Position numbers and translations under genes: made by a program. Positions 1-30,790 of a stretch of 64,000 nt of DNA are shown piece after piece. The notes under the pieces are model-generated. The model was not told where the DNA came from, searched no databases, and saw only the letters and a program-made list of their open reading frames with translations. Within the stretch, counting starts at the first letter, position 1; every line of letters begins with the position of its first letter. Origin of the DNA: Patescibacteria group bacterium (GTDB lineage Bacteria > Patescibacteriota > Patescibacteriia > UM-FILTER-42-10); the NCBI GenBank assembly GCA_018825385.1, contig JAHJEX010000071.1, positions 1,547 through 65,546 of the forward strand, in the 5' to 3' direction.

Positions 1-85
1 TGCCTCACTTAAAGAGCAAACAGGCCAAGGACTCACTGTATATTCAGCAGCAATTCTCTCCCAATTGTACTTTTTATATGACATT

Positions 86-672
86 CTAAGAGTATTTCTT
101 TATTAATAATTTTGCGGCATCTTTAAGAGTTTCTATGCGGTAGAATATGAACTTATTCTGTGTTGTGATGCCCCATTCTAAAATTATTTCTTTTTGCTTT
201 ATCCTTCTTTCTGCTTGTAATATTTTTTTTCTCTCGTCAGATGATAATAGTTTCTTTTTTCCAGATGAGCTGATAAGTTTTCCTTGCTCATAAAAATAGC
301 TGGCATCAACTTTTCCGTACCGCATCAAATCTACAATCGACCCGTTTGCCGATTCAATAACTGTCCGGTTTCTTTCGATTAAAACTGTACCACCCTTTTT
401 CCATTTCCAAGAAGGGTAAATTACAAACAATGCTTTCCCTTTGAGTTTTTTTGCAGTTCATTTATCTTCGCAGGAACCTGTCTTTTTGGCAGCCAATTAA
501 CATACAAATTTTTCCAGGGAGCGCCGACTACCTTCACAGTACGGATAGTCCAACCACAATAATCCCTAATATTATAATACTTATTCAAGTCTTTTGAGGA
601 TTTCACAAACTCCCACTCCGGGTGAGGAAGACCCGCTTTTTCTATTTTATTCAATCCTTGATAAATGTCCAT
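86..672 (-). pseudogene. Hypothetical ~196-aa protein split into ORFs 421..672 and 86..430 by a frameshift in an A7 run at about 424-430; weak resemblance to a minimal ATP-grasp/PPDK_N-like nucleotide-binding domain
   Basis: The two ORFs overlap by 10 nt in different frames. Removing one A from the A7 run joins ...KINELQKK-LKGKALFVIYPSWKWKKGGTVLIERNRTVIESANGSIVD. The N-terminal GLNKIEKAGLPHPEWEFV segment resembles the L..L...G.PVP.GF element of PEP/pyruvate-binding ATP-grasp domains. The resemblance is weak. Confidence 0.3.
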
Positions 673-674
673 AA

Positions 675-2165
675 CTATACTTTCTTAATTATTCCATTTC
701 CGGCATCTACTTCTATCATATCACCATCTTGAAAAACTTTAGTGGCATTTTTGTATGACACTATTGCCGGTACACCAAACTCCCTAGCAACCACAGCCGC
801 ATGGCATGTCAACCCCCCAACCTCAGTAACAAAAGCTGCCGCTCGTTTCATTGCCGGCAAATAATCAACTGTTGTAGCTTGAGCAATCATTATATCTCCA
901 TTCTTAACCTTGTCATTTTGTGTAGGATTCAAAATTATCTTTGCCTTACCCTTAACCATACCAATGTTTGCACACACTCCCTGATTTTCATCGTTACCTT
1001 GCAGATTCTCGGCAGTTTTTTCTAAATGTCTGAATATTCTACTGGCCTCATTCTTTGTAAAATTAATACGCTTAGTCATAGCTCGATTAAATCCCCAACC
1101 ACAAATATTGCCCTTATCTTTTAGCACCTGGATTGGGTCGATCGCTCCTTTTAGCGTTTCTATTATTTCATCTTCGAAGAGATTGCGTATTTGATTAATA
1201 GCTAAATATGTTCTCCTAGAAATCTCTTTGTAAATAGGTAATAAATGAAAACCAGCAAAAGATACTAAGTATTCTTCTTCATTTCTGGTATCTAATGCCA
1301 GGCCAAAATCAATAAATATTTGCAAATCTTTCTTTTGAATATGGTATTTGCCGACCAGTTCACTAACATCCCTATTCCTGATCTCTGAATAGTTTTTCAA
1401 AACATGATAACCTTGTTTAAGCTTGAGCAGATTTTGACTTAGCAAATCTCCTATTTGTTTTTGATAATATTCTGGACCCCAGGGAGTTCCATAAGTAAAA
1501 ACAGGCATCCAACCATACTGCTTAGCTAGTTTTTTGCTGGCTATATCTATAGATTGATTCTTTTCTTTTATCTTTATGACTTCACTCAAAACTGCCCGTT
1601 TTTCTTTTAGAGTAGTAGATATTTCTTCAGGCTTCGTCAGTTTGAATAATACATTATAGTATTCCTTTGAATTTCTCTGTATTTTCAGCTTCTTGACTAA
1701 AATATCTTCCATAATTGGTATCCAATAACCCTCAGCTGTCCAGCCGAACTGATCATAAATGGTCATTCTATGCATCCAATCACGATTTTTTTTATAGATC
1801 TTTATTAGCTGGATATTTGATATTTTTGATAAATCTTTTGGATTGATTTTTTGTATAGCTTGCTTAGCTTTCTTTTTTAATGGATAGAAAGTCTTTAATT
1901 TGCGCTCCAATCCTTTGTAATCTTTCTTATTGATTTTTTTGATGCAGGCATATAAATTATCAAAAAACTCCTGAGGGAAATACATATGCTGAGAATGGTC
2001 TTTGAAATTATGTAAAGCTAAACTACCTTTACTGACACCATAAAGTTTTTTAAAATATTTAGAAGAATCTTCACCGTGCCAAGTCTCACTATCAGATGGA
2101 GCTAGAGCCCATTGCCCCATCTTTCTCATTTTAATTTCTAAATAGTATTGGATTTCTTTTCTCAT
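675..2165 (-). CDS. PEP-utilising-enzyme mobile (phospho-His swivel) domain protein, paralog 1 of a tandem array; unknown ~400-aa N-domain
   Basis: The C-terminus GGLTCHAAVVAREFGVPAIV...DGDMIEVDAGNGIIKKV matches the PEP-enzyme phosphorylation-site signature G-G-x-T-x-H-[AST]-[ASV]-[IV]-V-[AS]-R. The N-domain shares the W-x-x-x-x-YG-x-P motif with neighbouring paralogs. The stop lies 3 nt from the next gene. Confidence 0.75.
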   Translation of the reverse strand: MRKEIQYYLEIKMRKMGQWALAPSDSETWHGEDSSKYFKKLYGVSKGSLALHNFKDHSQHMYFPQEFFDNLYACIKKINKKDYKGLERKLKTFYPLKKKAKQAIQKINPKDLSKISNIQLIKIYKKNRDWMHRMTIYDQFGWTAEGYWIPIMEDILVKKLKIQRNSKEYYNVLFKLTKPEEISTTLKEKRAVLSEVIKIKEKNQSIDIASKKLAKQYGWMPVFTYGTPWGPEYYQKQIGDLLSQNLLKLKQGYHVLKNYSEIRNRDVSELVGKYHIQKKDLQIFIDFGLALDTRNEEEYLVSFAGFHLLPIYKEISRRTYLAINQIRNLFEDEIIETLKGAIDPIQVLKDKGNICGWGFNRAMTKRINFTKNEASRIFRHLEKTAENLQGNDENQGVCANIGMVKGKAKIILNPTQNDKVKNGDIMIAQATTVDYLPAMKRAAAFVTEVGGLTCHAAVVAREFGVPAIVSYKNATKVFQDGDMIEVDAGNGIIKKV

Positions 2166-2167
2166 AT

Positions 2168-3703
2168 TTATAGCTTTGTCACTATTCCTTTATCAGCATC
2201 CACTTCCACCAGATCTCCATTTTGTAAATGCTTCGTTATACCTTCAATCCCAACTATACAGGGTGTATTCTTTTCACGGGATACAATAACCGCGTGATTA
2301 GTTAATCCTCCATATTCAGTAATAATGCCACTTGCCTTTCTTAAGACAGGAACAAAATATGCGCTTGGAGCTTGAGTAACAAGAATCTGACCCTTTTTAA
2401 TATTTTTGGCATCTTTGGGAGCAAAGGCAACTATCACACTTCCCTTGATTTTTCCTAAACAAGCTGCCTTTCCTTTAAAGCTTGTTTGTTTATGTTCAGA
2501 TTTGCCCTGCTCAACAATCCTAATTTGTTGCTTGACTTTCTGACCCACGCTTGTTTTAACTTCTCCATAATAGTAAGTATATGAACAAAACTGCAATCTT
2601 TGTTTGATCTTTGCTTTACTAATTTTTTTATTATTCCTTAGATGGTCAACAATTTCCTGGTCAAGTAGGAATTTAAACTCCTGATAAGTAATTCCTAGCC
2701 GATTAGCAATTTCCAAATAGAGTAGCTTCAATAGATGAGTAGTATAGCCCTGAAAAGCATTATCGATAATTCGAAGATATACTGCTCTTCTTATTCCCTT
2801 GATTAGTAAGCCCGTTTTGTAATCAGGTTTCAATTTCTTGATTGCGACTTTTGCTTTATTTATTGTCGCCTCGTTATAGTCGTCGCCCATACGCTTTGCC
2901 TGGATACGGAAAGGTTCATTTTGAATAACAAACTTTTGAATATCTTGCCAAAGGTCTTTTTTGCTAATTGACTCAGCGTTTACTACTTCAGTTAGATATC
3001 CATATTTTTTTTGATGTCGATCAATCAGCACTTCATATTTTGGATAGTCCTTAAGAATCTTAATTCCTTCTATTTTAGCTTCTTTCTTGAAGATAGTATC
3101 TTTCTTTAATAGCTGAATAATTTTCAAAAATGCGTTACGCTCTTTGAATATTGGCGTCTTCCTATGCGGAGTAATGAGCAACGAAGTAAGTGAGGATATT
3201 TTATCAACACTTTGATTTTTTATTTTCCTTTTTACATAAGACTCAATAATTGGACCGAGGTATCGTTCCAAATAGTAGTCATAATGATCCATGAAAGAAT
3301 TATATTCTAGATGAGATCTGGCCTCTAAAAAGAGAGACGCTAAGGAAAAATCTGAAATGCTCTTATAATCCTTTTTGATAATTCTTTTTATGGCCAATAA
3401 ATCTCTTTTTGTATTCTGTTCATATGGCTTAAGAGTCTCAAGAATAAAAGACGGCCTTTTGTGAAACAGACTAACCATTGTTTTCTCAAGTATGTCTTGG
3501 TCCTTCTGACATAAATAGGCATATACTGTACCCTTTTTGTAGAAACCAACAAATACCTGAGGGGCATATCCTATAGCTTTTTTCCATTCATTTTGATATC
3601 TTCTGGTGAAAAATGGTTGCTCATCAAAGAGTGGCCAATTGCCAGACCAAAACCAGATCCAATTTACTTTTCTCCATTCTTCACCTGATAATTTCTGAGT
3701 CAT
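2168..3703 (-). CDS. PEP-utilising-enzyme mobile-domain protein, paralog 2
   Basis: C-terminus GGLTNHAVIVSREKNTPCIVG...NGDLVEVDADKGIV. The N-domain is paralogous to neighbours. Gene spacing is tight. Confidence 0.75.
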   Translation of the reverse strand: MTQKLSGEEWRKVNWIWFWSGNWPLFDEQPFFTRRYQNEWKKAIGYAPQVFVGFYKKGTVYAYLCQKDQDILEKTMVSLFHKRPSFILETLKPYEQNTKRDLLAIKRIIKKDYKSISDFSLASLFLEARSHLEYNSFMDHYDYYLERYLGPIIESYVKRKIKNQSVDKISSLTSLLITPHRKTPIFKERNAFLKIIQLLKKDTIFKKEAKIEGIKILKDYPKYEVLIDRHQKKYGYLTEVVNAESISKKDLWQDIQKFVIQNEPFRIQAKRMGDDYNEATINKAKVAIKKLKPDYKTGLLIKGIRRAVYLRIIDNAFQGYTTHLLKLLYLEIANRLGITYQEFKFLLDQEIVDHLRNNKKISKAKIKQRLQFCSYTYYYGEVKTSVGQKVKQQIRIVEQGKSEHKQTSFKGKAACLGKIKGSVIVAFAPKDAKNIKKGQILVTQAPSAYFVPVLRKASGIITEYGGLTNHAVIVSREKNTPCIVGIEGITKHLQNGDLVEVDADKGIVTKL

Positions 3704-3705
3704 AA

Positions 3706-5154
3706 CTATACTTTCTTAATTATTCCATTTCCGGCATCTACTTCTATCATATCACCATCTTTTAGTAGTTTAGTGGCTATTTTTGTCCCAATAACGCATG
3801 GCACCTCGAGTTCTCTTGATACAATAGCAGCGTGACAGGTAATCCCTCCTGAATCTGTAATAATAGCTCCAGCCTTTTGCATAGCAGAAATAATTTGGGG
3901 ATTAGTAGAAGTTGATACTAAAATATCACCTTTTTTCATTTTCTTCATTTCTTCTGCCTCATCCACCCTCCTCACAATTCCTCTAACCTTCCCTGGAAAA
4001 GCGGTATTGCCCTCAATCATTTTGAGGTTTGGATTAACATATAGAGATTTTTTTATTTCCTGAGATAGTTTTATTACACTTTTTCCTGATAATACCCTGT
4101 ATTTAGTGCCTTTAAAAAAAACAACCGATTCTTTGATTCTTTCATTCATTAAATCCGGATCAATATTTTCTTTCAGTAGCGCATCCTTCATTTCATTTGG
4201 AGCAATCATAAAAGCCTGAATTTTAGATAAATGATTTCTTTTTGCTACTTCCCGAACAAAATCTTCCATCATTAAATGGGCCTTTTGATTCAAAAACTTT
4301 CGTTCGAACTTCCAGAAACCCAAAGTCCTTAAGGCATTAATTATCCTATTCTCCTTGGCGTTTAATTTGAGTTCCTGCTCTATTTTTCTTTGGTTATTCC
4401 TCAATATACCTGCTGATTTCATTTTTTCTTTAATCAGCTCACCAACTTTAATCTTTTGCTTCGGTAAAGGATTTAAACGATTTTCAATATCTGCTTTTTG
4501 CCAGGCCGGACCATTATAACCATAGCCGACCCAGGCATATTGCTTCAAATGATCCGCAATTTTTCTGTCAGTCAAATCCTTGTTTAGTTGCTTGCCCCGC
4601 AAATCAAGTAATGCCAACTCTTCCCTGAATGCCACTGTTTCCCTTGGTGAAGAAGATAAAACCCGGAAGTACTCACCGAGTTTTTCGTTGTTCTTGCCAA
4701 GTTTCTGTTTAATTATTTGCTCGACTCTATTGCTCAATAACGACTCTTCCATTTCCGCCACCGTCGCCATTGTACTATAAGTCATTAAACTAATAAATTT
4801 GTTCAGCCAGTCCTGCCAACGATTATACAACTCTCCACCACACAATGAAGATAAATCACCTGACAGTTTTTCAGCTGCCTTGAGCATAATTGGTATTTCT
4901 TTTATGTTGGTCGCTTCAATTTTTTTTAGCAGCGCCTCATCTTTTTCTAAACGATTTAGAATTTTTTTTCCAGGAGTGACTAGCCCCCCTTGTGTTGTTA
5001 TGTAACTATACTCATGTTCTTTGTACCAACAACCAATCACATTATTTTTTACTCCAACTTTTTTAGCAGCATACTGCGCACACCACCAATATAACGCGGT
5101 TGGATATAAATAAGCGTTCTTATCATGAGCTAATTCTAGCCACTTGTAGGCCAT
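3706..5154 (-). CDS. PEP-utilising-enzyme mobile-domain protein, paralog 3
   Basis: C-terminus GGITCHAAIVSRELEVPCVIG...DGDMIEVDAGNGIIKKV. The last 61 nt (3701..3761) are identical to 670..730 of paralog 1. The AWVGYGYNGPAW motif is in the N-domain. Confidence 0.75.
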   Translation of the reverse strand: MAYKWLELAHDKNAYLYPTALYWWCAQYAAKKVGVKNNVIGCWYKEHEYSYITTQGGLVTPGKKILNRLEKDEALLKKIEATNIKEIPIMLKAAEKLSGDLSSLCGGELYNRWQDWLNKFISLMTYSTMATVAEMEESLLSNRVEQIIKQKLGKNNEKLGEYFRVLSSSPRETVAFREELALLDLRGKQLNKDLTDRKIADHLKQYAWVGYGYNGPAWQKADIENRLNPLPKQKIKVGELIKEKMKSAGILRNNQRKIEQELKLNAKENRIINALRTLGFWKFERKFLNQKAHLMMEDFVREVAKRNHLSKIQAFMIAPNEMKDALLKENIDPDLMNERIKESVVFFKGTKYRVLSGKSVIKLSQEIKKSLYVNPNLKMIEGNTAFPGKVRGIVRRVDEAEEMKKMKKGDILVSTSTNPQIISAMQKAGAIITDSGGITCHAAIVSRELEVPCVIGTKIATKLLKDGDMIEVDAGNGIIKKV

Positions 5155-5155
5155 T

Positions 5156-6649
5156 TCAGATTTTTTTAATTATTCCTTCTAACATATCCATCTCCACTTT
5201 TTCTCCGTCTTTGAAAAAACGAGAAGCAAATTTAGTGCCAACTATGCAAGGGACTCCTAATTCCCTTGAAACAACAGCCGCATGGCAAGTCATACCACCA
5301 ATATCTGAAATAATTGCCTTAGCCTTTTTCATAACAGGCACAATATCAGGCGTAGTTGCAATTGAAACTAAAATTTCCTCTTGATTGAATTTAACCATTT
5401 CCTCCGGACCATTCACAATTTTTACTACTCCCCTTATTTTATCCCTCTTGTCAGCACATGCCACTTGTCCAGACAATTCTCTGCCATCATTACTAATTTC
5501 TTCTTTCTCGACATTATTTTCGACCCATTGTTTTGCTTCACTATTATATAAGAAGTTCTCCCCCTCTTCAGAGTCAAATAAAACACAATATTTCCATCTT
5601 CTGTTGAGAATATTTATATTCGGAAACTCGCCTGCATCCATGAAATGGTTCATTTCCCGCATTGTCATCATCCCGGCCTGTTTCATAGTTATTCCTTCTT
5701 TTGTGAGAAATGGTTTCATCAACTTATGAATAACATAGTTTGACAAAAACATCATAGGAGTACGAATAATTTTCACATAACTAATATTCTCTGCAACCCT
5801 AATAATTCTCATCTCACTATCTGATAGTTTCAGATGTTTTATAATGCCATCTCTTTGTTCCTTCTTCACCTGCGACTGCTTTTTCATTATTTGAATTTGT
5901 TCTAAAGGAGGAATATCGGAAGACAGCATAGTTATTAGAGAATCATAAGCTCCTGTAAGGCTATATTCAGGACCTGTATACCCATAAGTAACCCAAGCCC
6001 ATTTTGCAACATGTCGTTCAACTTTCCTTACTATTTTAAGGGGCAAATTATTCATTTCCAGTTCGTTACTATAAATTTCTTGAGCTATCTTTGCCAGATC
6101 TTCATGAACTTTTTGATCATATGTCTCTACATCAATAAATCCTAGAATAGAAAGATATTCATTTATTTGTCGTTTGTCTTCTATTTTAGATTTAATAAGT
6201 TTTTTTAAATCCTGGCTTGATCTCGCAGAACCTAATTCAATTATTGCCCCGGTGATACCATAAACACACAGTTCAAAATAAAGATTAAAGAAGACCTTTA
6301 TCACTTTTTTCCTCTTCAAATCATCTATTTTATGTTCCTCTAGATTTTTAAGGGTCTTTTTTGCAATATCATATATTTTCCCAACATATTTTTCTGAATT
6401 TTTTACTATACTCCGATCAAAACCCGGCTCGGTAATTAGTCTATTGTATACAAATTCACCCCAGTCATGCCATTCTTTCTTCAGAACCATAGCTCTAACT
6501 ATGCCTTCTGAAAATTCATATGCAATTCTTGGGATTCCTTTACCCACAAAAATCGCCAATTCTTTGGAGATAATTGCACGAACAATTGGGTTGAGACTCA
6601 AAATATCAACCCCGGGTTCCGAATTGAAGATAAAGTATCTTTTACTCAT
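5156..6649 (-). CDS. PEP-utilising-enzyme mobile-domain protein, paralog 4
   Basis: C-terminus GGMTCHAAVVSRELGVPCIVG...DGEKVEMDMLEGII. The N-domain has AKWAWVTYGYTGPEY. Confidence 0.75.
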   Translation of the reverse strand: MSKRYFIFNSEPGVDILSLNPIVRAIISKELAIFVGKGIPRIAYEFSEGIVRAMVLKKEWHDWGEFVYNRLITEPGFDRSIVKNSEKYVGKIYDIAKKTLKNLEEHKIDDLKRKKVIKVFFNLYFELCVYGITGAIIELGSARSSQDLKKLIKSKIEDKRQINEYLSILGFIDVETYDQKVHEDLAKIAQEIYSNELEMNNLPLKIVRKVERHVAKWAWVTYGYTGPEYSLTGAYDSLITMLSSDIPPLEQIQIMKKQSQVKKEQRDGIIKHLKLSDSEMRIIRVAENISYVKIIRTPMMFLSNYVIHKLMKPFLTKEGITMKQAGMMTMREMNHFMDAGEFPNINILNRRWKYCVLFDSEEGENFLYNSEAKQWVENNVEKEEISNDGRELSGQVACADKRDKIRGVVKIVNGPEEMVKFNQEEILVSIATTPDIVPVMKKAKAIISDIGGMTCHAAVVSRELGVPCIVGTKFASRFFKDGEKVEMDMLEGIIKKI

Positions 6650-8113
6650 AACTTTTTTATAAATCCTTTGTTGGCATCAACTTCTGCTAAATCACCATCT
6701 TTAAAAATTCGTGTAGCAATTTTTGTACCGATCAAGCAAGGTTTTTTTAGCTCTCGTGCAATAATAGCAGCGTGAGAAGTAATACCTTCTAAATCAGTCA
6801 CAATTGCAGCCGCCTGTTTCATGGCCGGTACGATCCCCGGGTTAGTCATATGAGAGATGAGAATATTACCCAGATGTATTTTACCAATTTCAGGAACAGT
6901 GTTAATAATTTTTACTCTTCCTCTTACCCTGCCACCATACGCCGCCTGGCCTTTAATAATTTCTGAAGATTCTTTTTGTAATTATTTGCTGATAGATTTT
7001 CAATTTCTTTCGGATTTTCTTTGCCTGTTTCCCAACATAAATGCTAGTTTCCTTACCTTGAGCAAAATGGATGCTATACTTTTGACGTTCGTTCGTTATG
7101 TTGGAATAATTTTTTCCCTCAAGTGCTTTTTTGAAATCTTCTGGTGCTAAAAAGCGTACTTGCTCTAAAGTTAAACCGGTTCTTCTACCAATCTCCCTAA
7201 ATATTCCTTCCATACAATAGTAACCATAAAACTGTGAATCCTTGCTGTAGAGCCGAATAAAAATTGAGTCCTGGACAATCTTGAAAATCTTTTTATGAGT
7301 GCGACCAATGTTATACTCTTTAAATAGCTTCTGTTGCTTTTTTACTATACCATGTAATTCATTACGCAGTTCATTTACTGTTTTAACTGCTCCTTTTCTT
7401 CGCATAACTTTGATTTCTTTTTTAAAATAGTCCAGAGATAATTTACTTCCTTGCAAACCATATTCAAGCCATTCATACTTTTTAGCATGCTTTGCAAGTG
7501 CTTTTTCTCTATTTATCTGATCATTTATCAAAGCTACTCTTGCTAGATCAAATTTCTCCCGAGTCCAATTACTTCTCCTTAGTGGCGTAATTAGGATTTG
7601 AAATGCTTCTTGAGGACTTGCAGTCAAATTCCTACTATGCCTCTGTTTAGATAAATAGTTATGTAGGTAATTCGTAACTAAATTGTCCGGTGTCTCGAGA
7701 AGCCACATAGGACCACGCGGTACATGCACATTTGCTTGTCCTATTTGAAATTTATCTACCCATGCTATCAATTGCTTATCTGATAGTTTTTCTGGATCTA
7801 GTTTCTTTACCTTATTATCAAAAACAAATAAATTATCAGCGTTTTGTTTATTAAGTTTATGAAGATCATCCCATGATTTCTGATCAGAAAAAAGTAGATC
7901 GAAATTGTGTTTATTAGTTCTTTCAAAATCATCTTTTGGAACAAATAAATTACAGGCAGAATTGATATATTCTGCCCAAGTATTTTCAACCCCAACCATT
8001 TTCCACAGTTTTGGCAATTTCGTAAGTCCCTCCCAAGTGATCACAACAAAAAGATAATTGGCATAATCTTCCTTTTCTAGCAAATACCATACTTTGTTAC
8101 AAGGAATTTTCAT
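6646..8113 (-). pseudogene. PEP-utilising-enzyme mobile-domain protein, paralog 5, split by a frameshift in an A5 run near 6940-6950 (ORFs 6953..8113 and 6646..6849)
   Basis: 6953..8113 encodes the paralog-type N-domain (EWLEYGLQGSKL). The frame of 6646..6849 extends upstream as ...EIIKGQAAYGGRVRGRVKIINTVPEIGKIHLGNILISHMTNPGIVPAMKQAAAIVTDLEGITSHAAIIARE, aligning with the G.A.PG.V.G.V+.I region of the other paralogs. Removing one A from acaaaaag restores a single reading frame. Confidence 0.65.
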
Positions 8114-8119
8114 ACATAC

Positions 8120-9010
8120 TTATTTCACAATCCTAATATCCCCTTTTCTTGTATCAAGCTCTACAACATCTCCGTCCTTCAAAACTTTCGTAGCAATTTT
8201 AGCGCTGATGATGCACGGCTTTTTCATTTCTCTGGCTACGATTGCGGCATGGGAAGTAAGTCCACCAGCATCTGTTACAAATGCTGCTGCTTTCTTCATA
8301 GCAGGAAGCAATGACGGAGTTGTAGCGACTGAGACCAGAATATCTCCCTTTTGTATTTTACTTATTTCAGAAGATTCGTTTACAATCCTCACTTTCCCCT
8401 TGGCATAACCGGTAGCAGCAACCATTCCGTGAATAACTAAAACTTGTTTAATTTTTTGCTTCACCTTTCTTGCATTCTTATTAACATATTCTTTGGCTTT
8501 TTTGCCTGTTAGAATTTCTTGCCTATCTTCACTTATTGCTATCCACACGCAATATCTTTCTCTTTCTCCCAACTTTTTTATATTGATTGCTTTTGATTTC
8601 TTCAGCCAATCAACTAATTCTGTTTTTGAACAATAGTACAATAGCTTTCTAGGAACGATTACTCGCTTTGACATCTCTGTCAATACCCTTTGCCATTGAG
8701 AACATACTCCAAATAGAGTTTCCATTCTCAAACCTTTCAAATATGTAAATAGCTGGGCAACATGGAACAGATATTTTTCTTGGTTGTTTAGATCAAGCTT
8801 TTTGAATAATAAATTCTGTTTGCCTATTAACGTACTAGAATAACCGATCATCTCAGCCAATTCCTCTTTTGCCATTTTTCTATTCTTGAGTAGCTCCTTT
8901 GCAGAAAGCACTAATTCTTCTTTCGTCATTCTGGGACCGAGTTGGCCAAAACTAACCCAGTTCCATCTGCGATAATAGTTGATGATATGTTTTAGTTTTC
9001 TTTCTGACAT
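8120..9010 (-). CDS. PEP-utilising-enzyme mobile-domain protein, paralog 6, short form (296 aa, lacks the first ~200 aa of the family N-domain)
   Basis: C-terminus GGLTSHAAIVAREMKKPCIIS...DGDVVELDTRKGDI. It begins at the family's W-x-W-x-x-G motif (RWNWVSFGQLGP). Confidence 0.7.
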   Translation of the reverse strand: MSERKLKHIINYYRRWNWVSFGQLGPRMTKEELVLSAKELLKNRKMAKEELAEMIGYSSTLIGKQNLLFKKLDLNNQEKYLFHVAQLFTYLKGLRMETLFGVCSQWQRVLTEMSKRVIVPRKLLYYCSKTELVDWLKKSKAINIKKLGERERYCVWIAISEDRQEILTGKKAKEYVNKNARKVKQKIKQVLVIHGMVAATGYAKGKVRIVNESSEISKIQKGDILVSVATTPSLLPAMKKAAAFVTDAGGLTSHAAIVAREMKKPCIISAKIATKVLKDGDVVELDTRKGDIRIVK

Positions 9011-9131
9011 TTTGCCAATTCAATAAACAAAAACAGCCTTTATTGCTGTTTCTATTATACCATTCCTAACCGATTTTAAAAGCTAAGGCAGCATTTCTGA
9101 GATTTTTATTTTATACTATATCAGATTTTGA

Positions 9132-10913
9132 CTACTCAGCAGTAAGATCATTTATTGTCGCCGGTGGAAAAGTATCAGATATCCTTATCAGCCGAACCCA
9201 GCGGGCAGTTAAATCACCTGGACCATCATTAACTAAACGAAAATCCATATCACTATCAAATTGGTTGGCAAAGTTAGCATCATGGATTGTGAAAGTATAA
9301 GTCTTAACCCGGTCATCATTACTATTGCTAATTGTTGTTGTAGATGCTAAAGCTCCGCCATTATCATAATACTCTAAATGCCAATCGGTTTGAGAATTAT
9401 CTATCATTTCCACTTTAATTTGAACCGTATCGGTTGGTATAAAACTATCATCTAAGGCAAAATAAATATAATTATTACCGGTAGCTATATCTGTACGACG
9501 AGCAGTGTAATGAGTGTATGAACCTGCCCCAGCATCAAAGTAGTAGAGCAGACTTGGCACAGTCACGCCACCCGTGATATCGCGTTGCAGTAGCCAGCGT
9601 TCAAAATTCCTTACCTGATCCACCCCATAGGAACTGATAGGAGACTCAAAGAGAAGGGTCCAAGCATCCGGAGAATTGTATACGTCTTTGCCAAAAGAGA
9701 GACGGGCATATTCACTCAAGCCAGGGTTGATTTCTTCACCCGCCTCTGAAGTCCATAACCATCTCATTCGTGCTTGTAAGGCCCGCATGACAGACATCCG
9801 ATACCGATATGGGTCGCTATGTTTACTACCATAACGCCATTCCCAAGCTTCACCGTACTCTTCATTTTCCTCGCCCCAATACCGTCCATCAAAATTCGGA
9901 CTGTCCTCATCTATAATAATATAACCATCATCATCAACCGTACTACCCCAGGATGTTTGCTCTATATGCCAAAAATAAAATTCAATACCGCCGTTTCTAT
10001 TACCAAAACCCTTGCTCCAAGCATAATATAGTAAATTGGTGCTCGCTCCCTCAAAATCCGTACGACCTTGAAACCAACTCGGACCCATCCCCACCCAAGC
10101 TACCTTATACTCTACTCCGGCGAAAGCCTCGGTATAGGCATCCATGCGTGCGCTTAGCCAATCATACATCACCGTAGGTGTCAGTCCCCAGTCAGCTTCG
10201 ATAGTATTGAGATACGGCTGAGTCATCCATAATTCCTCTCCTCGACTTTCGCTGATGCCATGCAAATAAATCGACTCTAATCGTGGGTCATCAGCATACG
10301 CCTCGCCCAAGGCTCTGACCATATTGTTAAAATCACCTCCAATTTCTGGTTGCCATTGTGGGATAACAGTAATGTTGAACGTGCCGCCTACAGTTGGCAA
10401 ATTCTCCGGATCAAGATCATAATATGTAAAAATCCAATCTGGTACCTCTCGAGATACAGAAATGCCGTTGTCAGGATTATATCCGCCGGTTGTAATGCTC
10501 TGGAGATGCAGACTGCCAGTCTTCCCCTGTGCCGCAAGGTTCGCGAGCCTGCTCTCCAGGGATGACCAATCGTACACACCCCTTTCGGGTTCAAAATCAT
10601 TCCAACCCAACCACATACTTCCTGAGACGGAATTGTCGCAATTACCACATACGTATCCAGAAAAGTCTTCAGCTTCAACAGTATCAGGTAACGAATAATC
10701 TTCTCCTTCAACAAATGGTACTGTACTGCTGCCAAGCACAACCGTGTGACTTTCGGCTTTCTGTTGACTGATTTCAACGTTATTTTTTTTTGTTAAACTA
10801 TTGTTTGAGTTGATAAACAAAAAAGCCACTGCAAAAACTAAAAGCGCAGCTAAACAGAAAAATAATGCCAAGCTTCTGGAGTGTCGATTTTTTAATGTCT
10901 GTATTTGAACCAT
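9132..10913 (-). CDS. Secreted/membrane-anchored protein, possibly a glycoside-hydrolase-like TIM-barrel with a C-terminal beta domain
   Basis: It has an N-terminal hydrophobic segment LALFFCLAALLVFAVAFLFI. The segment GWNDFEPERGVYDWSSLESRL is reminiscent of GH5/GH42-type barrels. The gene looks noticeably more GC-rich than the flanking array by eye. Confidence 0.35.
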   Translation of the reverse strand: MVQIQTLKNRHSRSLALFFCLAALLVFAVAFLFINSNNSLTKKNNVEISQQKAESHTVVLGSSTVPFVEGEDYSLPDTVEAEDFSGYVCGNCDNSVSGSMWLGWNDFEPERGVYDWSSLESRLANLAAQGKTGSLHLQSITTGGYNPDNGISVSREVPDWIFTYYDLDPENLPTVGGTFNITVIPQWQPEIGGDFNNMVRALGEAYADDPRLESIYLHGISESRGEELWMTQPYLNTIEADWGLTPTVMYDWLSARMDAYTEAFAGVEYKVAWVGMGPSWFQGRTDFEGASTNLLYYAWSKGFGNRNGGIEFYFWHIEQTSWGSTVDDDGYIIIDEDSPNFDGRYWGEENEEYGEAWEWRYGSKHSDPYRYRMSVMRALQARMRWLWTSEAGEEINPGLSEYARLSFGKDVYNSPDAWTLLFESPISSYGVDQVRNFERWLLQRDITGGVTVPSLLYYFDAGAGSYTHYTARRTDIATGNNYIYFALDDSFIPTDTVQIKVEMIDNSQTDWHLEYYDNGGALASTTTISNSNDDRVKTYTFTIHDANFANQFDSDMDFRLVNDGPGDLTARWVRLIRISDTFPPATINDLTAE

Positions 10914-10945
10914 ATACTGCTATTTCACTGTCTATGACAGTTTGT

Positions 10946-12607
10946 TTAGTTAGGCGGAAAAAATTTGCCTACAGCTATATTTATGCCTGATTGCATTTCA
11001 TTCGGAAACGCCACCACTTCATACAACGGATATTCACCCATCCCTTTCCATATTTTAATTACCGCCCGATCGCCTGATTGGACTGCCGTAACAATCTCGT
11101 CCACTCCATTATAATCAAAATCACCAGTCGCTAAGCTTACACCTCCACGAAATTCAGGATGATATGCATAAAATCCATTGTGATACAGAGTCATAGAACC
11201 GTCCGGCAAACGACGAAATATTCTAACATGCGGTCCGCCCACAGCTACCGGCGCTGTAATAATTTCATCACGGCCGTTTCCCAATAAGTCTCCGACCGCT
11301 ATGTTAACTCCCCCTCTAAAGGTAGCCGGATATGCCATGAATCCCAATATATGAGGCCAAATTTTGTTTCCTTCATAATGAAAAATACGAACATGTGGCC
11401 CACCGGTTAAAATACCAGGTGCTGTGATTATATCAGCATGTCCGTCTGCATCTAAATCTCCACTTGCTATATTCCAACTTCCTCTCAGCCATTCATTATA
11501 TGCAAAAAAGTTTTCAATTGTAGGAACATAGGCTCCATCTCGTTTACCAAATATCCTAATATTTGGTCCCCCGTTTGATGCTGGAGAAACAATTATTTCT
11601 TTATTACCCTTCTTATCTACATCACCTATCGCTACTTTTACACCACTACGAAATCCCTCTTGGTATACTGAAATTTCATTCAGTAAATCACCTTTCCAAT
11701 TAAATATTCTCACCTTTGGTTCATAGCCAGGTCCCGGTCCAACCACGATTTCGTCGATTCCATCGGAATCAAGATCACCCGCCGCAACATTAACTCCACC
11801 TCGAAATGATTCAGAATAAGCAAAAAATTGAGAAAGCAAAGTTCCGGTTTTTGTCAGAATCCTAATTTGAGGTCCGCCACCCTGATTTGGTGCTGCAACT
11901 AAATAACTTTCTTGAATTTGAAGTTCTTCTCCGCCAACCGGAGGTTGAGGTGCTACTTCTGGCGGTGTCTCTTCTGTTGGCGGTATTTCTTCCAACGGTG
12001 ATGTGGGTGAGCTGACTATATTGCATTCTTCCGTTTCATTAGGACGATCTTCTTCTTTACCACAATTGTTCAAATCACTACATTCTCTTGTTTCTGTGCT
12101 GTCAACACATTCTGACCACGCTGAACATGTCCAAGATACAACACAGTCTGTAGTATGTGAAGCGATATTAGAAAGCGCTGACCATTGTCCTTCATTATCT
12201 ACAGTTTTTATCGCAAAATAGTAGGTAGTATTTGGGGCCAATCCCATAACTACAAAAGTTTCTTCAGTTCCGGCAAGTGAAGGAGCGGGAGGATCTGCAA
12301 TCTGCGAAGCAGTTGTCCAACCTGAATCATCTATCACCTGAGTACTGTAACGAATATCATATTCAGAAGCCGTACCAGAAAAATCATCATCCCCTGGCGC
12401 TGTCCAGGTAAGTATTACAGAATTTGTTGAAGTGGCACCGAAACCTGCCTGTACTTCATTCAGATGTATCTGATTTCCATAAGGATATAAAAAACTATAA
12501 GCTAAACCAATAAACGCAGTCAATGCAGCAATAACAGCAATTTCAATATTGATTCTCACAAGTAGTTTTGCATTGTTTTTAATTATTGCGACTGATCTCA
12601 CTTGCAT
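10946..12607 (-). CDS. Membrane-anchored FG-GAP-repeat beta-propeller protein with a fibronectin type III-like domain
   Basis: It has an N-terminal TM segment. An FN3-like segment reads TWTAPGDDDFSGTASEYDIRYS. There are about seven repeats of FxxxxxxFRGGVNxAxGDLDxDGxDEIVxxPGxxGGPxVRIF, the FG-GAP pattern. Confidence 0.6.
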   Translation of the reverse strand: MQVRSVAIIKNNAKLLVRINIEIAVIAALTAFIGLAYSFLYPYGNQIHLNEVQAGFGATSTNSVILTWTAPGDDDFSGTASEYDIRYSTQVIDDSGWTTASQIADPPAPSLAGTEETFVVMGLAPNTTYYFAIKTVDNEGQWSALSNIASHTTDCVVSWTCSAWSECVDSTETRECSDLNNCGKEEDRPNETEECNIVSSPTSPLEEIPPTEETPPEVAPQPPVGGEELQIQESYLVAAPNQGGGPQIRILTKTGTLLSQFFAYSESFRGGVNVAAGDLDSDGIDEIVVGPGPGYEPKVRIFNWKGDLLNEISVYQEGFRSGVKVAIGDVDKKGNKEIIVSPASNGGPNIRIFGKRDGAYVPTIENFFAYNEWLRGSWNIASGDLDADGHADIITAPGILTGGPHVRIFHYEGNKIWPHILGFMAYPATFRGGVNIAVGDLLGNGRDEIITAPVAVGGPHVRIFRRLPDGSMTLYHNGFYAYHPEFRGGVSLATGDFDYNGVDEIVTAVQSGDRAVIKIWKGMGEYPLYEVVAFPNEMQSGINIAVGKFFPPN

Positions 12608-12927
12608 TTAGTTAGTGTTCAAATCCATGGATATTTTATTGATTAAAAAAGTAATCAAGCACACTGAGTTTATAACACCTCAATAAAAAATCGCTGAACA
12701 AACAGCGACTGAAAAAAGAAAAATAACGATTATATGCGCTATTCTATTTTTTTGTTTTGATGCAACAATACCATTACGCATAATACTATAGAATTCATAT
12801 TTCTATGTTTATTGTAACAAAAGTAATCACTTTTGTCAATTTTTAGATTAAATAATTTCAACAATATCTATAACTTTCCCGTACACTTAAGTTCTTTTTC
12901 CCAATTGAGAAATTTGTTCCAGAGACC

Positions 12928-13525
12928 CTAGAGACTGTTACTTTCATATGCCTTCTCCAGTTCCATAGCCATTGAACTAAAAAAACCAATTTTATAGAAA
13001 TATTGGTCGCGGGTTTTTTTATCAAATATTGAACGTAATCTAATTTTATTTTCTTTCATCCAAGCCGAATATTTTCCACCAGTATCATCGAGGATCGCTA
13101 CTATGCTAGAAATTTTCAATTCCCCTTTAGAATTCTTTATGAATACTTGTTTACTTGAACCAGTAGCAATTACATCGTCAACCAGTACAGCACGAGCTCC
13201 TTTTTCTATATATTCCTTCTACCAGAGCATCAGTAGAATAACCTTTAGACTTTTTTCTAATATAAACCCATGGGAGATTCAATTCCATGGCAGTAGTAGC
13301 AGCTAAACTGATCCCGCCCGTTTCGCTACCAGCTATCACTTCAATTTTCGGCTTAATTTTTTTGATTATTCGAGCAAATTCCTGCGCAATTGTTTTTAGC
13401 ACTACTGGATAAGACAAAGCAGCTTTAGGATCCCAATAGATTGGAACAATTCTTCCGGCCTTAATTTTAACGCCTGTAGTATAAAAACGTTCTTGAGCCA
13501 ATACTTCAATCGCTTTATTATTCAT
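12928..13525 (-). pseudogene. Orotate-PRTase-like phosphoribosyltransferase, split by a frameshift in an A5 run near 13178-13185 (ORFs 13178..13525 and 12928..13119)
   Basis: The N-part ends ...ALVEGIYRK. The alternative frame continues GARAVLVDDVIATGSSKQVF...SSIVAILDDTGGKY, the PRPP-binding loop. The last 5 codons come from the 32-nt comM-fragment repeat. Confidence 0.6.
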
Positions 13526-14997
13526 ATCTTTTTTATTACCCCTTTTTCCGCATCTACAAATACTTTGTCACCATCTTTGAAAATTCTTGTCGCAATTTTT
13601 GTTCCTACAATGCAAGGAACTTTTAGTTCTCTAGAAACAATTGCCGCATGTGAAAGCAAGCCTCCTTCATCAGTAACGATTGCGCCCGCCCGTTCCATAG
13701 CAGGAACATAAGTAGGGTTAGTAGAATTGGCTACTAGGATATCCCCTCGTTCTACTTTGCGAACATCATGGACAGTAAAGACAAGCCTGGCTTTCCCTCG
13801 AGCTTGCCCGGGACTTGCTGGTTGACCGATTAACTCTTTTGTTTTTACCAATTCTTGTTCCCTTTTGCGATGTTTCGTTGTGTACTGCTTAAGCTTTACT
13901 CCCGAATATACTTTCCGCTGACCATTTTCTAGAATTAATGCATGATCCGAATGACGAAGTTTTGCCTCCCTTTTCATGTTAGCAGACAATTTTCCTTTTT
14001 TTAGCGCACTAATAATTTCATCTGCTCCTAGTGAATAGAAATGCCTACATGGTATCCCAAGTCTGTGCGATATCTCCTGCCAAAGCCCCCACAAATTATG
14101 TACTACATAGCCATAAGTTTCATCAACATAGTTCGACAATGAACACCAGCGCTTTATATGATATATCTGTAATCTGGTTTCTTCGTCAAGTTCAATCTTT
14201 TTTATTGATTCTTCAGTTAACTTATCATTTCTATCCTGTATTCTAAAATCATCGATTAAAGCTTTGAATTTCTTTGGCGATAATGATAAATATTCCCTCA
14301 ATCTACTTTTTAAATTCTCAACAGTATATGCCACCCCTCGAAAATAGTAGAACCCCAGATAAGCATATTCAGAAAGATGGTTTTCCAGTTTTATTATTAC
14401 CTTTTCGTCATTCATTATGATTTTATTCTTACGGATAGACTCAGCTATTTTCACTAAGCTCCGTTTTTCTGTCCGCATTTCTGAAGGTCTATCAGCTTCA
14501 AAAAATATTCCTATATATTTATTCTGTTCATATAAATCCGGTATTTTAGCCGCTATTTTAGTTGTAACAATGTCCGGTAAAAACTGGTTCAGGTAAATAT
14601 AATCGTATGCAAAACACCATATTTTTTTGGAATGTTCATACCATTCAGCAAATACCCTGATCAATTCTAGATTACTCGACTTTGCAAAGTCAAACGATCC
14701 ATAGTAGTCTGCAAAACGACGATAATCTGTAATTCTTTGTTTATATTCTCGTTCATAGTCAAAAAGATTTGAATCCTTGCCAGTTAATGCTTTTTCCATA
14801 ACCGAACGATACAGTTTGAAATCCTCCCTTCCATACCATCGGGCGTTATCAAACTGCCGATAATTTCTAATATTCTTTTTTACCCGATGTGCCTTCGCCC
14901 ATAGACCTTCTTTATAAAGAGAAATAATCGAATCAATAACCAAAAAAGGATGCGCTTTTCCTCTTCGTGCAATTTCAATCCATTTAGTATTTGTCAT
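13522..14997 (-). CDS. PEP-utilising-enzyme mobile-domain protein, paralog 7
   Basis: C-terminus GGLLSHAAIVSRELKVPCIVG...DGDKVFVDAEKGVIKKI, with a paralogous N-domain. Confidence 0.75.
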   Translation of the reverse strand: MTNTKWIEIARRGKAHPFLVIDSIISLYKEGLWAKAHRVKKNIRNYRQFDNARWYGREDFKLYRSVMEKALTGKDSNLFDYEREYKQRITDYRRFADYYGSFDFAKSSNLELIRVFAEWYEHSKKIWCFAYDYIYLNQFLPDIVTTKIAAKIPDLYEQNKYIGIFFEADRPSEMRTEKRSLVKIAESIRKNKIIMNDEKVIIKLENHLSEYAYLGFYYFRGVAYTVENLKSRLREYLSLSPKKFKALIDDFRIQDRNDKLTEESIKKIELDEETRLQIYHIKRWCSLSNYVDETYGYVVHNLWGLWQEISHRLGIPCRHFYSLGADEIISALKKGKLSANMKREAKLRHSDHALILENGQRKVYSGVKLKQYTTKHRKREQELVKTKELIGQPASPGQARGKARLVFTVHDVRKVERGDILVANSTNPTYVPAMERAGAIVTDEGGLLSHAAIVSRELKVPCIVGTKIATRIFKDGDKVFVDAEKGVIKKI

Positions 14998-14999
14998 AT

Positions 15000-16562
15000 T
15001 TAAACCTTCTTAATAGTTCCTTTTTCAGCATCTACGATTACCCTATCACCGTCTTTCAAAAACAAATCACAATTACGAACCCCCACCACACATGGAATTT
15101 TCATCTCTCGTGCTACAATCGAGGTATGACAAGTCAGACCGCCCGCTCCCCCTACTAATGCAGATGCCTTTTTCATAGCCGGAACCAGATTTGGGTTGGT
15201 ATTGTGCGCCACCATAATATCCCCCTTTTTCATTTTCTTCATTTCATCAGGAATATTTATTACTTTAACTATACCTTCAACTTTTCCGGGATAGGCGCAT
15301 GTACCAATAAGTTTGTTTACATTGTTTTTAGGTTTTTGTAGTTTAATTGATTTCATGAACTGTTCAGCTTGCTTCCCTGTTATGACTTTGTTGATATATC
15401 TAGCGCTCCCCGTTCTTTTGTAATAGTCTACAGCCTTTTTTAGCCTTTCATTTAAAACATTAGCATCAACCTCGCCCTTTTTCAGTGATTCTATTATTTC
15501 GCTGGGTTTCATTGCCTGAACCTGATTTACTGAAAGTCCGAATCTTTTACCAAATTCTCTGAATATTATTTCATAATAATACATTGCATTATATAGCCCG
15601 TTTTTTCTATAACTTTTAATAAATACCATCTCTTGAGCCATTTTGAGAATATTTTTTTCATGCTCCGTAAAGCCAATTTGCCCTATAAGCTTTTTTTGCT
15701 CTTTCAACAAGTCTTGGCGATCTTTTTTCTTTTGCTCCAATACTGTTTGTGGATTACTCTGTTCGCGCAAAAACGCCTGCCAACGTGATATATAATCCTC
15801 TAGAGGATACGCCGGCCCTTTGTATTGATAGGTAAGCGGGCTATAGCGCTGATAATGACTGACAACCTTTTTGTAAATCTCTTTATCCAGATTCGCTAAA
15901 TTATTTTTCAGACCCTGAAGGCTGGACTGTATAAAAGTCTCTTTGAGTTTCCTTTTTTTACTTATATCCGATGCGATTCTTAGGAAACTTTCTTCCTCTT
16001 TTTCCAGTAAACTTTTTTTATTCGGTGATGTTAAGATCGAGAATACTTTTGATGCACTTTCTTGTATTTTGTTGCTTTCCAGCTTTTTAGCAATCAATCT
16101 TAGAATTGCTTTAGTTGTCAGTTGATCACCGGCATCAACATGCCAGCTTACAGCAGTGGCATGCCCATGACTAATCATGTGAATTTTCCATAATTCTTTC
16201 ATCAGTTTAGCGATCTGTATATCAGTCATATTCCCTAAATCCAGCTTTTCAACATTTCTCATTACTTTAAAGAATTCAGTTGTGGCAATTTCTATCCTTT
16301 TTAGGATTTTTAATGCCCATTTTGGATTTTTAATTGCCTTGTCCGAAAGAAATTTGCATTCCGCATCAAACTCCTTCTTAACGTAGATCATTTGAGAAAA
16401 ATCACCATTAAAATATGTAAGAAATTCTTTCTCAAAACTTCCAGATCCCTGTTTTGGATACACGGTATAAAAAGCAATGCTTGGAATCTCCATCATGAAC
16501 ATTGTATTTTGGGGAATATCCTCAACTGCTATGTATGTTTTTTTCGTTCTACCCTTCGTCAT
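15000..16562 (-). CDS. PEP-utilising-enzyme mobile-domain protein, paralog 8
   Basis: C-terminus GGLTCHTSIVAREMKIPCVVG...DGDRVIVDAEKGTIKKV. The N-domain has PLTYQYKGPAYP. Confidence 0.75.
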   Translation of the reverse strand: MTKGRTKKTYIAVEDIPQNTMFMMEIPSIAFYTVYPKQGSGSFEKEFLTYFNGDFSQMIYVKKEFDAECKFLSDKAIKNPKWALKILKRIEIATTEFFKVMRNVEKLDLGNMTDIQIAKLMKELWKIHMISHGHATAVSWHVDAGDQLTTKAILRLIAKKLESNKIQESASKVFSILTSPNKKSLLEKEEESFLRIASDISKKRKLKETFIQSSLQGLKNNLANLDKEIYKKVVSHYQRYSPLTYQYKGPAYPLEDYISRWQAFLREQSNPQTVLEQKKKDRQDLLKEQKKLIGQIGFTEHEKNILKMAQEMVFIKSYRKNGLYNAMYYYEIIFREFGKRFGLSVNQVQAMKPSEIIESLKKGEVDANVLNERLKKAVDYYKRTGSARYINKVITGKQAEQFMKSIKLQKPKNNVNKLIGTCAYPGKVEGIVKVINIPDEMKKMKKGDIMVAHNTNPNLVPAMKKASALVGGAGGLTCHTSIVAREMKIPCVVGVRNCDLFLKDGDRVIVDAEKGTIKKV

Positions 16563-16564
16563 AT

Positions 16565-17131
16565 TTACATCTTATCAATTTTTATTACAGAATTATTATC
16601 CAGGTAATAATTTCGAAATGAGGAGTACTTCCAGTCTTCGGACCTTTTAACCAATCCGGCACGCACAGGATTATTGTGTATGTAATCAAGCTTCTCTTCA
16701 AGATCTTTTTGGTTACGCACAACATGTTCCCAAAATTTCCCTTGGATTACTTTGCCAGAACTTACATTTGCTTTATTGTAGCTATTTGCGAATACTCCAT
16801 CTATATGATGCATTATATCAGAAACTGTTCTTTTCATAGGAGGAATTATCAGTAAGTGAATATGGTCAGGCATGATAACAAAACCTACCAGCTTAAATGC
16901 AAATTTGTTCCGACAATAACTGATAGTTTTAATGTAAAGCGCTTTAAACCTATCCGATTCGAATATTTTTCTTTTTTTATATGGATTCACTGTTATAAAG
17001 TAGCAGTGGTTTTCTAAATAAATTCTTTTCCTCATTTTTTTTATTAGTCGGACCAAACAAGATTTGGTCCTACGTCTTAAAACTAATTCTTTCTCTATTC
17101 GCTTTGCGAGCCTGCCTGCATATAGCCCCAT
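16565..17131 (-). mobile_element. IS200/IS605-family Y1 HuH transposase (TnpA) or REP-associated tyrosine transposase (RAYT)-like gene embedded in the operon
   Basis: The HuH motif reads VMPDHIHLLIIPP, with a Tyr-containing C-terminal region (SFRNYY). The stop lies 3 nt from the downstream paralog start. A 9-bp-stem hairpin sits 64-88 nt upstream of the ATG. Confidence 0.65.
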
Positions 17132-17194
17132 TTCAACTAAACAGGTAAATATCGTTTGATCTTGTATTTAAATAAGCTGGTTTTCTATTCACGT

Positions 17195-17219
17195 AGCTGA
17201 CAAATCTTGTTTGTCAGCT
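17195..17219 (-). repeat. Hairpin agctgacaa-N7-ttgtcagct upstream of tnpA; candidate IS200-type left-end subterminal hairpin
   Basis: This is a near-perfect inverted repeat read directly from the sequence. Its orientation is wrong for a terminator of the upstream minus-strand gene. Confidence 0.35.
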
Positions 17220-17346
17220 CGTTTTACTGCTATGTATGTTTTATTCATATTTTTTATTTTAACGGTGCTTGTAGTGAGTTGGGTTCTTTATGAAGTATAT
17301 GTTCTTCCCACAAAAACTAAAATAAATTATTGCTACTCTATTGCTA

Positions 17347-18036: not shown

Positions 18037-18038
18037 AA

Positions 18039-20174: not shown

Positions 20175-20179
20175 CCTTA

Positions 20180-21804: not shown

Positions 21805-21893
21805 AAATTAATTTGGTCAATAAACGTACTATACTATTGTAGTATATATTATTAAAAGAATAAAGGAGGAAGAATAGTAAATATTTGCGAGAA

Positions 21894-21972
21894 ATCCCGC
21901 ATATGCGGGATGACGAAGCAATCCCGTTTCAACTCAAAACCTGTTCCGAATAAGGAGCGGGATTGCTTCGTC
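21894..21972 (-). promoter_or_regulatory. Structured leader with mutually exclusive hairpins upstream of PRTase gene 21130..21804; candidate attenuator, riboswitch-like element or terminator of 22026..22772
   Basis: A perfect palindrome atcccgcatatgcgggat lies at 21894-21911. It is directly followed by a 15-bp-stem hairpin, gacgaagcaatcccg (21912-21926) paired with cgggattgcttcgtc (21958-21972). The gggat/atccc segments allow alternative pairings. Confidence 0.3.
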
Positions 21973-22025
21973 ACTCCTATTTTAAAATAGTAGCTCCTCG
22001 CAATGGTTACTGCTATTTATCCATT

Positions 22026-30771: not shown

Positions 30772-30790
30772 ATTTCGGCTGTATATGAGT

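Follow-up and report, generated by a model that had tools for sequence, protein, structure and literature searches.

The 64-kb stretch of contig JAHJEX010000071.1 from a metagenome-assembled genome of a Patescibacteria group bacterium (assembly GCA_018825385.1), referred to below as the window, carries at 675..16562 a row of genes for proteins that end in a phospho-histidine swivel domain. Two-component small-molecule dikinases were defined in a 2025 Journal of Biological Chemistry paper on HpeHI, in which HpeH combines swivel and rifampin (RIF)-binding-like domains and HpeI is the ATP-grasp protein (PMC12167813). We consider it probable that the region is an operon-like row of such H components together with one miniature ATP-grasp protein, orfX (86..672), and that orfX is the most likely charger for all H paralogs in the window, a stand-alone PPDK_N protein encoded elsewhere possibly sharing the job. 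This reading is grounded in the domain identities of the proteins, their conserved catalytic His, a basic residue at the position of Arg666 of rifampin phosphotransferase (RPH) in seven of eight paralogs, the predicted fold of orfX and a recurrent neighbourhood link.

An H protein would correspond to RPH minus its ATP-grasp, that is, a helical substrate-binding domain of ~400 amino acids (aa) followed by a swivel domain of ~75 aa. By homology with RPH, HpeHI and PpsAB, we infer a cycle in which the separate ATP-grasp protein would bind ATP and the swivel His of the H protein would attack the beta-phosphate, releasing AMP and Pi and leaving a phospho-His. The swivel domain would then swing back to its own helical domain, where the phosphate would be handed to a bound small-molecule acceptor. 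The choice of the ATP-grasp protein and of the substrates is likewise inferred.

Layout of the row and domains of the H proteins

The minus strand carries every gene in 1-17,400. Eight co-oriented genes with a C-terminal PF00391 swivel domain are found within 675..16562, six of them intact over their full length (482-520 aa), p6 being short and p5 frameshifted. In the order of transcription the row reads Y1-like gene, p8, p7, OPRT-like gene, two secreted-protein genes, p6, p5, p4, p3, p2, p1, orfX and p0. The first H gene, p8 (15000..16562, 520 aa, PF00391 E 1e-23), is followed by p7 (13522..14997, 491 aa, with PF00391), whose product is identical to NCBI protein KKB10_05280, encoded on a contig of 66,854 bp. 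Beyond the interruption come p6 (8120..9010, 296 aa, E 1.4e-25), p5 (6646..8113, 488 aa once reconstructed, E 1.4e-21 for the reconstructed protein), p4 (5156..6649, 497 aa, E 1.2e-21), p3 (3706..5154, 482 aa, E 1.1e-23), p2 (2168..3703, 511 aa, E 5e-21, motif GGLTNHAVIVSRE) and p1 (675..2165, 496 aa, E 2.3e-24 over residues 421-491, motif GGLTCHAAVVARE). A ninth H-type paralog, p0, starts with an ATG at 84-82, reads MSYKKYNWERIAAEY and is truncated by the window edge (1..84); its first 28 codons match a 512-aa PF00391 protein located downstream of orfX in a 97%-identical contig (L018; L numbers denote the loci compared here). Short H forms are not confined to p6, which lacks the first ~200 residues of its N-terminal domain (N-domain) and keeps the last ~200: L001, L003, L017 and L021 have such forms too, of 335-360 aa.

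A preliminary description of this DNA, made from the sequence, had counted nine co-oriented genes, eight of them intact, packed 0-3 nt apart. The co-orientation stands, whereas the number is eight in 675..16562, the ninth gene beginning at 84 and leaving the window. Packing is indeed tight inside the blocks (-4 to +6 nt). The row as a whole is discontinuous, 4.5 kb of unrelated genes (9011-13521, holding the two secreted-protein genes and the frameshifted OPRT-like gene) separating p7 from p6. The one array gene described as frameshifted in an A-run is p5 (run ACAAAAAGA, ~6973-6977), in which the open reading frame (ORF) 6953-8113 covers the N-domain only and the swivel domain lies in the next frame.

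The Pfam search placed PF00391 at the C-terminal end of seven ORFs and reconstructed p5 (E about 1e-21 to 1e-25), bearing out the earlier statement that each gene ends in a His-bearing mobile domain. The catalytic His motif is likewise present in 8/8 paralogs, three of which vary slightly (EGITSH in p5, GGLLSH in p7 and CHTSIV in p8), and an alignment of 63 family sequences shows no variation at this His, at the GG before it or at the R-E after it. Neither a PF01326 ATP-grasp nor a phosphoenolpyruvate (PEP)/pyruvate TIM-barrel domain was found in any H protein with Pfam or NCBIfam, as had been claimed. The block described as conserved among the N-domains, (K/R)x(Y/W)xW..YGYxGP, can be recognised in most of the paralogs, where it is loosely conserved.

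The same description could not assign the N-domain to any known family, a view that our data do not sustain. NCBIfam alignments of p3, p6 and p8 extend past the swivel domain to positions ~620-866 of RPH-like models (621-866 of PRK06241/RPH for p3 and 628-861 of RIF_Ptrans_rph for p8), and the 63-member family profile matches the RPH structures 5HV2, 5FBS and 5HV1, its positions 240-487 aligning with RPH 622-865 (E about 1e-27). The 63-sequence alignment was also used to build an AlphaFold2 model of p7, which is mostly helical and confident over the whole length (mean pLDDT 94.4). When this model was compared with the PDB using Foldseek, RPH-Lm entries came first (E 4e-15), with a query-normalised TM score of 0.60-0.61 over ~570 aligned columns. 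The N-domain is thus, as judged from predicted models, on which all our structure-based assignments rest, a homolog of the RIF-binding domain of RPH, i.e. an RPH-type substrate-binding domain that is neither an ATP-grasp nor an orphan fold. A diverged ATP-grasp, which the preliminary description had named as the finding that would overturn it, is ruled out by the helical p7 model and its match to the RIF-binding domain. The second phosphotransfer of RPH requires Arg666 and Glu667 (PMC4844700). Mapped by sequence alignment, the Arg666 position is occupied by K or R in 7/8 paralogs, and a second basic residue is present at +3 or +4 from it in 5/8 (Lys670 in RPH).

Pairwise identity between the paralogs is 12-22% for the N-domains and 36-54% for the swivel domains, in line with the earlier view that they are diversified. 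Since their N-domains are so divergent, each H paralog probably phosphorylates a different acceptor. Identity to proteins of other loci reaches 65% for p3 (ortholog in L013), 55% for p7 and 35-42% for p8, most others being below 35%; orthologs of p8 open the array in L003, L013 and L014. Together with a repertoire that is conserved in part and otherwise specific to each genome, these divergent N-domains speak for numerous distinct acceptors. The family comprises thousands of homologs, mostly of 480-500 aa, in Patescibacteria and in DPANN archaea, hence in two domains of life.

The identity noted between the paralog termini is exact (61/61 nt between 670-730 and 3701-3761). The tract covers the stop codon, the spacer and the ATG of the next gene; over 83 nt the same p1/p3 pair is 92% identical, compared with 63-67% for other copies. 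Of the ongoing gene conversion or duplication that had been proposed, these alignments point to a short local conversion tract, not to a recent amplification. Recent tandem amplification was rejected outside this tract in view of the N-domain divergence and of some paralogs having closer orthologs in other genomes; on sequence grounds, the H paralogs are ancient and only the p1/p3 tract is recent.

A candidate charger within the row

Directly downstream of p1, orfX (86..672, minus strand) is frameshifted in the window and yields a 195-aa protein when joined across an A7 run (~445-452). At this site the 97%-identical contig L018 has A8 and an intact orfX. Homologs in Patescibacteria include one intact protein of 96% identity and ~40 others of 193-205 aa, and an exhaustive profile search recovered 114 cluster representatives, mostly of ~190-205 aa, none of which stands out as an ordinary PPDK_N protein of ~315 aa. 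The predicted structure is an ATP-grasp closest to dikinase ATP-binding domains, its nearest structural neighbours being the ATP-grasps of RPH and HpeI.

Outside the window, orfX lies in or beside co-oriented H rows in six other distinct loci with 3 to 11 H genes (three in L003, nine in L005/L013, six in L006/L015, eleven in L007, six in L008/L014 and three in L010), within a small synteny sample of ~15 loci. In one genome the H genes are spread over two contigs, and orfX was found near only one of the rows. The H genes adjoining orfX in different loci are only ~29% identical and belong to no fixed subfamily, which fits a shared role rather than dedicated pairing; orfX as the dedicated partner of the adjacent H gene was rejected on this basis. 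The whole pattern (rows, orfX near one of the rows in the genome with two H contigs, and a varied neighbour) fits a shared charger. The earlier suggestion that 86..672 might encode a shared donor therefore agrees with the predicted RPH/HpeI-type fold and with the embedding of orfX in arrays elsewhere, although the window's own copy is broken by its A-run frameshift.

Several observations weigh against the proposed reading of the row and of orfX as its charger. The protein shows no sequence similarity to ATP-grasp families: it had no Pfam match and no match in a profile search of the PDB, and a 114-aa fragment, the only part scanned, had no NCBIfam match. Its comparison with the Patescibacteria PPDK_N family gave an hhalign probability of 1.2%, with a non-significant match of only 15 columns (VLIERNRTVIESARG to VTKDRKQMVIEAGFG). 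The ATP-grasp assignment thus comes from the predicted fold alone, and orfX, being ~40% smaller than the ATP-grasp of HpeI or RPH, may lack catalytic parts. No H gene lies within 10 kb of orfX in 5/11 distinct loci. As regards the H proteins, p7 has Ser at the Arg666 position and Glu667 is not conserved among the paralogs. Finally, there are three frameshifts in 16 kb, all in A-runs (orfX ~445-452, A7; p5 ~6973-6977, A5; OPRT-like gene ~13200, A5), which may reflect decay or assembly error; such shifts could arise from misassembled homopolymers, variation between strains or sites prone to slippage.

A canonical PPDK_N protein encoded elsewhere could also be the real charger. These stand-alone proteins (P0277 family) have 312-319 aa, a PF01326 score of 339 bits and all classical motifs, match HpeI in size and, in Patescibacteria, are both very common and well conserved (at least 7,944 database matches, 61-77% identity). 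Their genes lie no more than 10 kb from H genes in L007 (20334-20585), L014 (19957-20591), L020 (8001-8942) and L021 (8001-8960). In L007 and L014 orfX is present as well, a coexistence that speaks against mere redundancy. It is accordingly possible, if doubtful, that the H paralogs are charged by a canonical 314-aa PPDK_N from outside the window, orfX being a regulator, a ligase or a charger using a different nucleotide. Against this, PF01326 was absent from the 46 ORFs and reconstructed proteins of the 64-kb window scanned with Pfam (the 3,174-aa ORF lying outside that scan), and no canonical ATP-grasp was detected in the window by tblastn or by a Patescibacteria PPDK_N hidden Markov model run on six-frame ORFs of at least 80 aa. 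Furthermore, the gene embedded in the rows at 0-10 nt spacing is orfX, not PPDK_N, and the closest structural neighbours of the predicted orfX fold are specifically the RPH and HpeI ATP-grasps. Both orfX and PPDK_N are separate polypeptides of the same predicted fold class encoded near H rows; PPDK_N differs in having 312-319 aa and a strong PF01326 match, compared with 195 aa and neither PF01326 nor profile-profile similarity for orfX. PPDK_N may be the main charger and orfX an alternative or specialised one.

Neighbouring genes, possible substrates and further readings

Hints at the acceptors come from neighbouring genes only. The window contains five OPRT-like phosphoribosyltransferase paralogs on the minus strand (17347-22772 and 12928-13525), four of which are intact (229, 250, 224 and 248 aa), all scoring below the OPRT equivalog cutoffs. 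The fifth (12928..13525) is the frameshifted member of the row, and its start overlaps the p7 stop (ATGA). Beside the OPRT-like genes, also on the minus strand, lie genes for a phosphoribosyl pyrophosphate (PRPP) synthetase (20180-21133), a LOG/TIGR00730-like protein (19539-20174) and an NAD(P)HX dehydratase (18751-19542), and the window also encodes a PHP phosphatase resembling nucleoside-bisphosphate phosphatase. In L001 an ortholog of p7 sits among genes for dCMP deaminase, dUTPase, ThyX, thymidine kinase and thymidylate kinase. These PRPP, phosphoribosyltransferase and pyrimidine-salvage neighbours hint at nucleoside-, base- or ribose-related acceptors.

Genes for HAD_2 hydrolases of ~200 aa recur inside H rows of bacteria and of one Micrarchaeota contig (L001 9402-10004; L013 9390-10004 and 16251-16859; L014 9381-10004 and 13654-14259; L016 17701-18363; L020 3266-5383), and in L020 HAD_2 is fused to the H protein (705 aa); the H row of the window has no HAD_2 gene. 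Downstream of the rows in L013, L014 and L020 lies a gene whose ~300-aa product matches His_Phos_1 faintly.

A gene resembling REP-associated tyrosine transposases (Y1/HUH; 16565..17131, minus strand; PF01797 E 4e-12; NF047646 130 bits against a cutoff of 80) sits 2 nt upstream of p8. Y1/HUH genes are co-oriented in or beside H rows in four independent loci, the others being L003 (10649-11197), L007 (~9458-9886) and L020 (1596-2180). As the copies are only ~30% identical, they seem to be a long-standing, conserved part of the cluster, not a recent insertion sequence; 1-17400 showed no inverted repeats of the REP type. In three loci (L018 2409-2723; L019 3270-3557; L013 18432-18755), including the strain closest to the window, the last H gene is followed by one for a small GIY-YIG protein (~95-107 aa); in the window a counterpart would fall just beyond the left edge.

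The interruption at 9132..12607 (minus strand) consists of two genes for predicted secreted proteins, 9132-10913 and 10946-12607, in a region of higher GC content (0.43 compared with 0.35). One product has 593 aa with an N-terminal hydrophobic segment and no Pfam match, and the other has 553 aa with fn3 and FG-GAP repeats. Just upstream of these genes are a terminator-like hairpin (12710-12689) and the highest-ranking promoter-like site (12839-12811); counts in the promoter/terminator scan were at shuffle level and thus uninformative.

It was also considered whether the row is a resistance or detoxification battery in which each paralog, like RPH, inactivates a different antibiotic or xenobiotic of hosts or neighbours. 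The closest solved structure is that of RPH, whose family consists of small-molecule dikinases, some acting on antibiotics (PMC12167813), and the substrate domains are extremely diverse, with a repertoire varying between genomes. We nevertheless regard this reading as unlikely, since several paralogs have 55-65%-identical orthologs in other genomes, as fits conserved metabolic substrates, the neighbours belong to nucleotide/PRPP metabolism and HAD phosphatases rather than to efflux or resistance, and scores are far under the RPH cutoff (e.g. 73.7 bits against 999). An anti-phage defence system found no support in PADLOC, which gave no match for the H proteins, orfX, Y1 or the neighbours, save a marginal phosphoribosyltransferase hit (E 1.8e-4).

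Very unlikely, in our opinion, is that the H proteins dispense with an ATP-grasp, either shuttling phosphate between small donors and acceptors or being charged from PEP by another enzyme. HpeH alone does transfer phosphate between phenolic compounds, for instance from 4-phosphoacetophenone to acetovanillone (PMC12167813), and some H genes are far from any ATP-grasp gene (L001, L016, L017). However, ATP-dependent phosphorylation by HpeHI needs both components and all characterised relatives require the ATP-grasp for net phosphorylation (PMC12167813); the Pfam scans of the window detected no PEP-utilizers_C domain, and ATP-grasp genes recur beside the rows. Finally, the genes are most improbably decaying PEP synthase/RPH fragments or non-catalytic regulators with a swivel-like domain: the three frameshifts, the PPS-like transcription regulator (PspR) on record in the literature and the non-catalytic C-terminal domain of pyruvate kinase speak for it, but the family is maintained at 480-500 aa in two domains of life, the His, GG loop and following Arg/Glu are invariant across 63 sequences, the p7 model is confident over its full length, and all frameshifts fall in A-runs, with orfX intact in the 97%-identical strain.

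A broader picture may be sketched, which we offer tentatively and consider less likely than not. Patescibacteria and DPANN archaea would possess a modular phosphorylation system in which one or two stand-alone ATP-grasp chargers, including an unrecognised minimal one of 195 aa, serve at least a dozen interchangeable proteins made of a substrate domain and a His carrier. Genomes of ~1 Mb would thereby gain a wide range of kinases with which to trap or activate the metabolites they scavenge, possibly nucleosides, bases or ribose derivatives, with HAD phosphatases and a domesticated Y1/HUH protein as recurrent accessory parts. The investment is considerable, ~13 kb of a 67-kb contig being given to the H family and related loci packing as many as 11 copies into 20 kb. 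In ultra-small symbiotic bacteria and archaea, kinases and pathways that can be recognised are few, and knowledge of the H substrates would fill a sizeable gap in metabolic models of these lineages. Public labels such as "PEP synthase/pyruvate phosphate dikinase" or "pyruvate, water dikinase" (the latter also attached to stand-alone PPDK_N proteins in the sources) mislead and can wrongly imply gluconeogenic capacity. Should orfX be active, its 195 aa, set against the ~314-340 aa of RPH/HpeI ATP-grasps, would make it a model for the minimal requirements of His-directed phosphotransfer. One charger with many carriers, if true, would show swivel-domain recognition in trans and provide a toolbox of dikinases with new specificities.

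Elsewhere in the window, the leucyl-tRNA synthetase ORF (45111-48122, 1003 aa) contains an inserted alpha/beta-hydrolase (Ser_hydrolase/Abhydrolase) segment at residues ~448-623. Two very large ORFs (1111 and 3174 aa) occupy 27436-40315, where the GC content is 0.43-0.46, and the 1111-aa ORF had no Pfam match. A 450-aa ORF at 59691-61043 carries a guanylate kinase domain on residues 7-186 only, its C-terminal ~260 residues being without assignment.

Comparison with known dikinase systems

It had been stated that known enzymes always pair the swivel domain with an ATP-grasp, which does not hold: PpsAB (phenylphosphate synthase), CreHI and HpeHI, homologous to one another, are split in exactly this way (PMC12167813). 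These systems resemble the present one in carrying an RPH-type substrate domain and a C-terminal His swivel on one protein, with the ATP-grasp on a separate one; the conserved His is essential in HpeH (PMC12167813), and HpeI is one of the two best matches of the predicted orfX structure. The H proteins described here are smaller (~56 kDa compared with 71 kDa for HpeH), and their similarity to PRK08296 models (~570-630 aa, C-terminal swivel) is confined to the swivel region. Eight to eleven highly divergent H genes occur per locus, in contrast to one in HpeHI, CreHI and PpsAB. The embedded predicted ATP-grasp has 195 aa and is unrecognisable by sequence, whereas that of two-component dikinases has ~340 aa. 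The hosts are Patescibacteria and DPANN archaea, with nucleotide-salvage and HAD neighbours, and not aromatic catabolism genes as in the known systems.

RPH (PDB 5FBS/5FBT/5FBU/5HV1; NF041857) shares the substrate-binding and swivel folds, their order and, with 7/8 paralogs, the basic residue at the Arg666 position. Unlike RPH, the H proteins have no N-terminal ATP-grasp and do not conserve Glu667; identity is 14-18%, and NF041857 scores of 43-74 bits lie far below the cutoff of 999, which places them outside that family. PEP synthase provides the closest swivel sequence (8a8e, E 4e-49), including the GG-x-T-x-H motif, but PEP synthase and pyruvate phosphate dikinase (PPDK) have PF01326, a TIM barrel and a central swivel, whereas in the H proteins the swivel is C-terminal and the other two are missing. 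The top score against these families, 124 bits with cutoffs of 598-740, comes from the swivel region alone and does not qualify the H proteins as members.

No description of the arrays or of orfX in CPR (candidate phyla radiation) or DPANN was found in the literature searched, subscription-only papers being outside the search. An array of 8-11 or more divergent H genes accompanied by one or two chargers, the prevalence of the arrays in CPR and DPANN, and a sequence-orphan 195-aa protein with a predicted ATP-grasp fold all appear to be undescribed. The component types themselves, RPH-like H components and ATP-grasp I components, are known.

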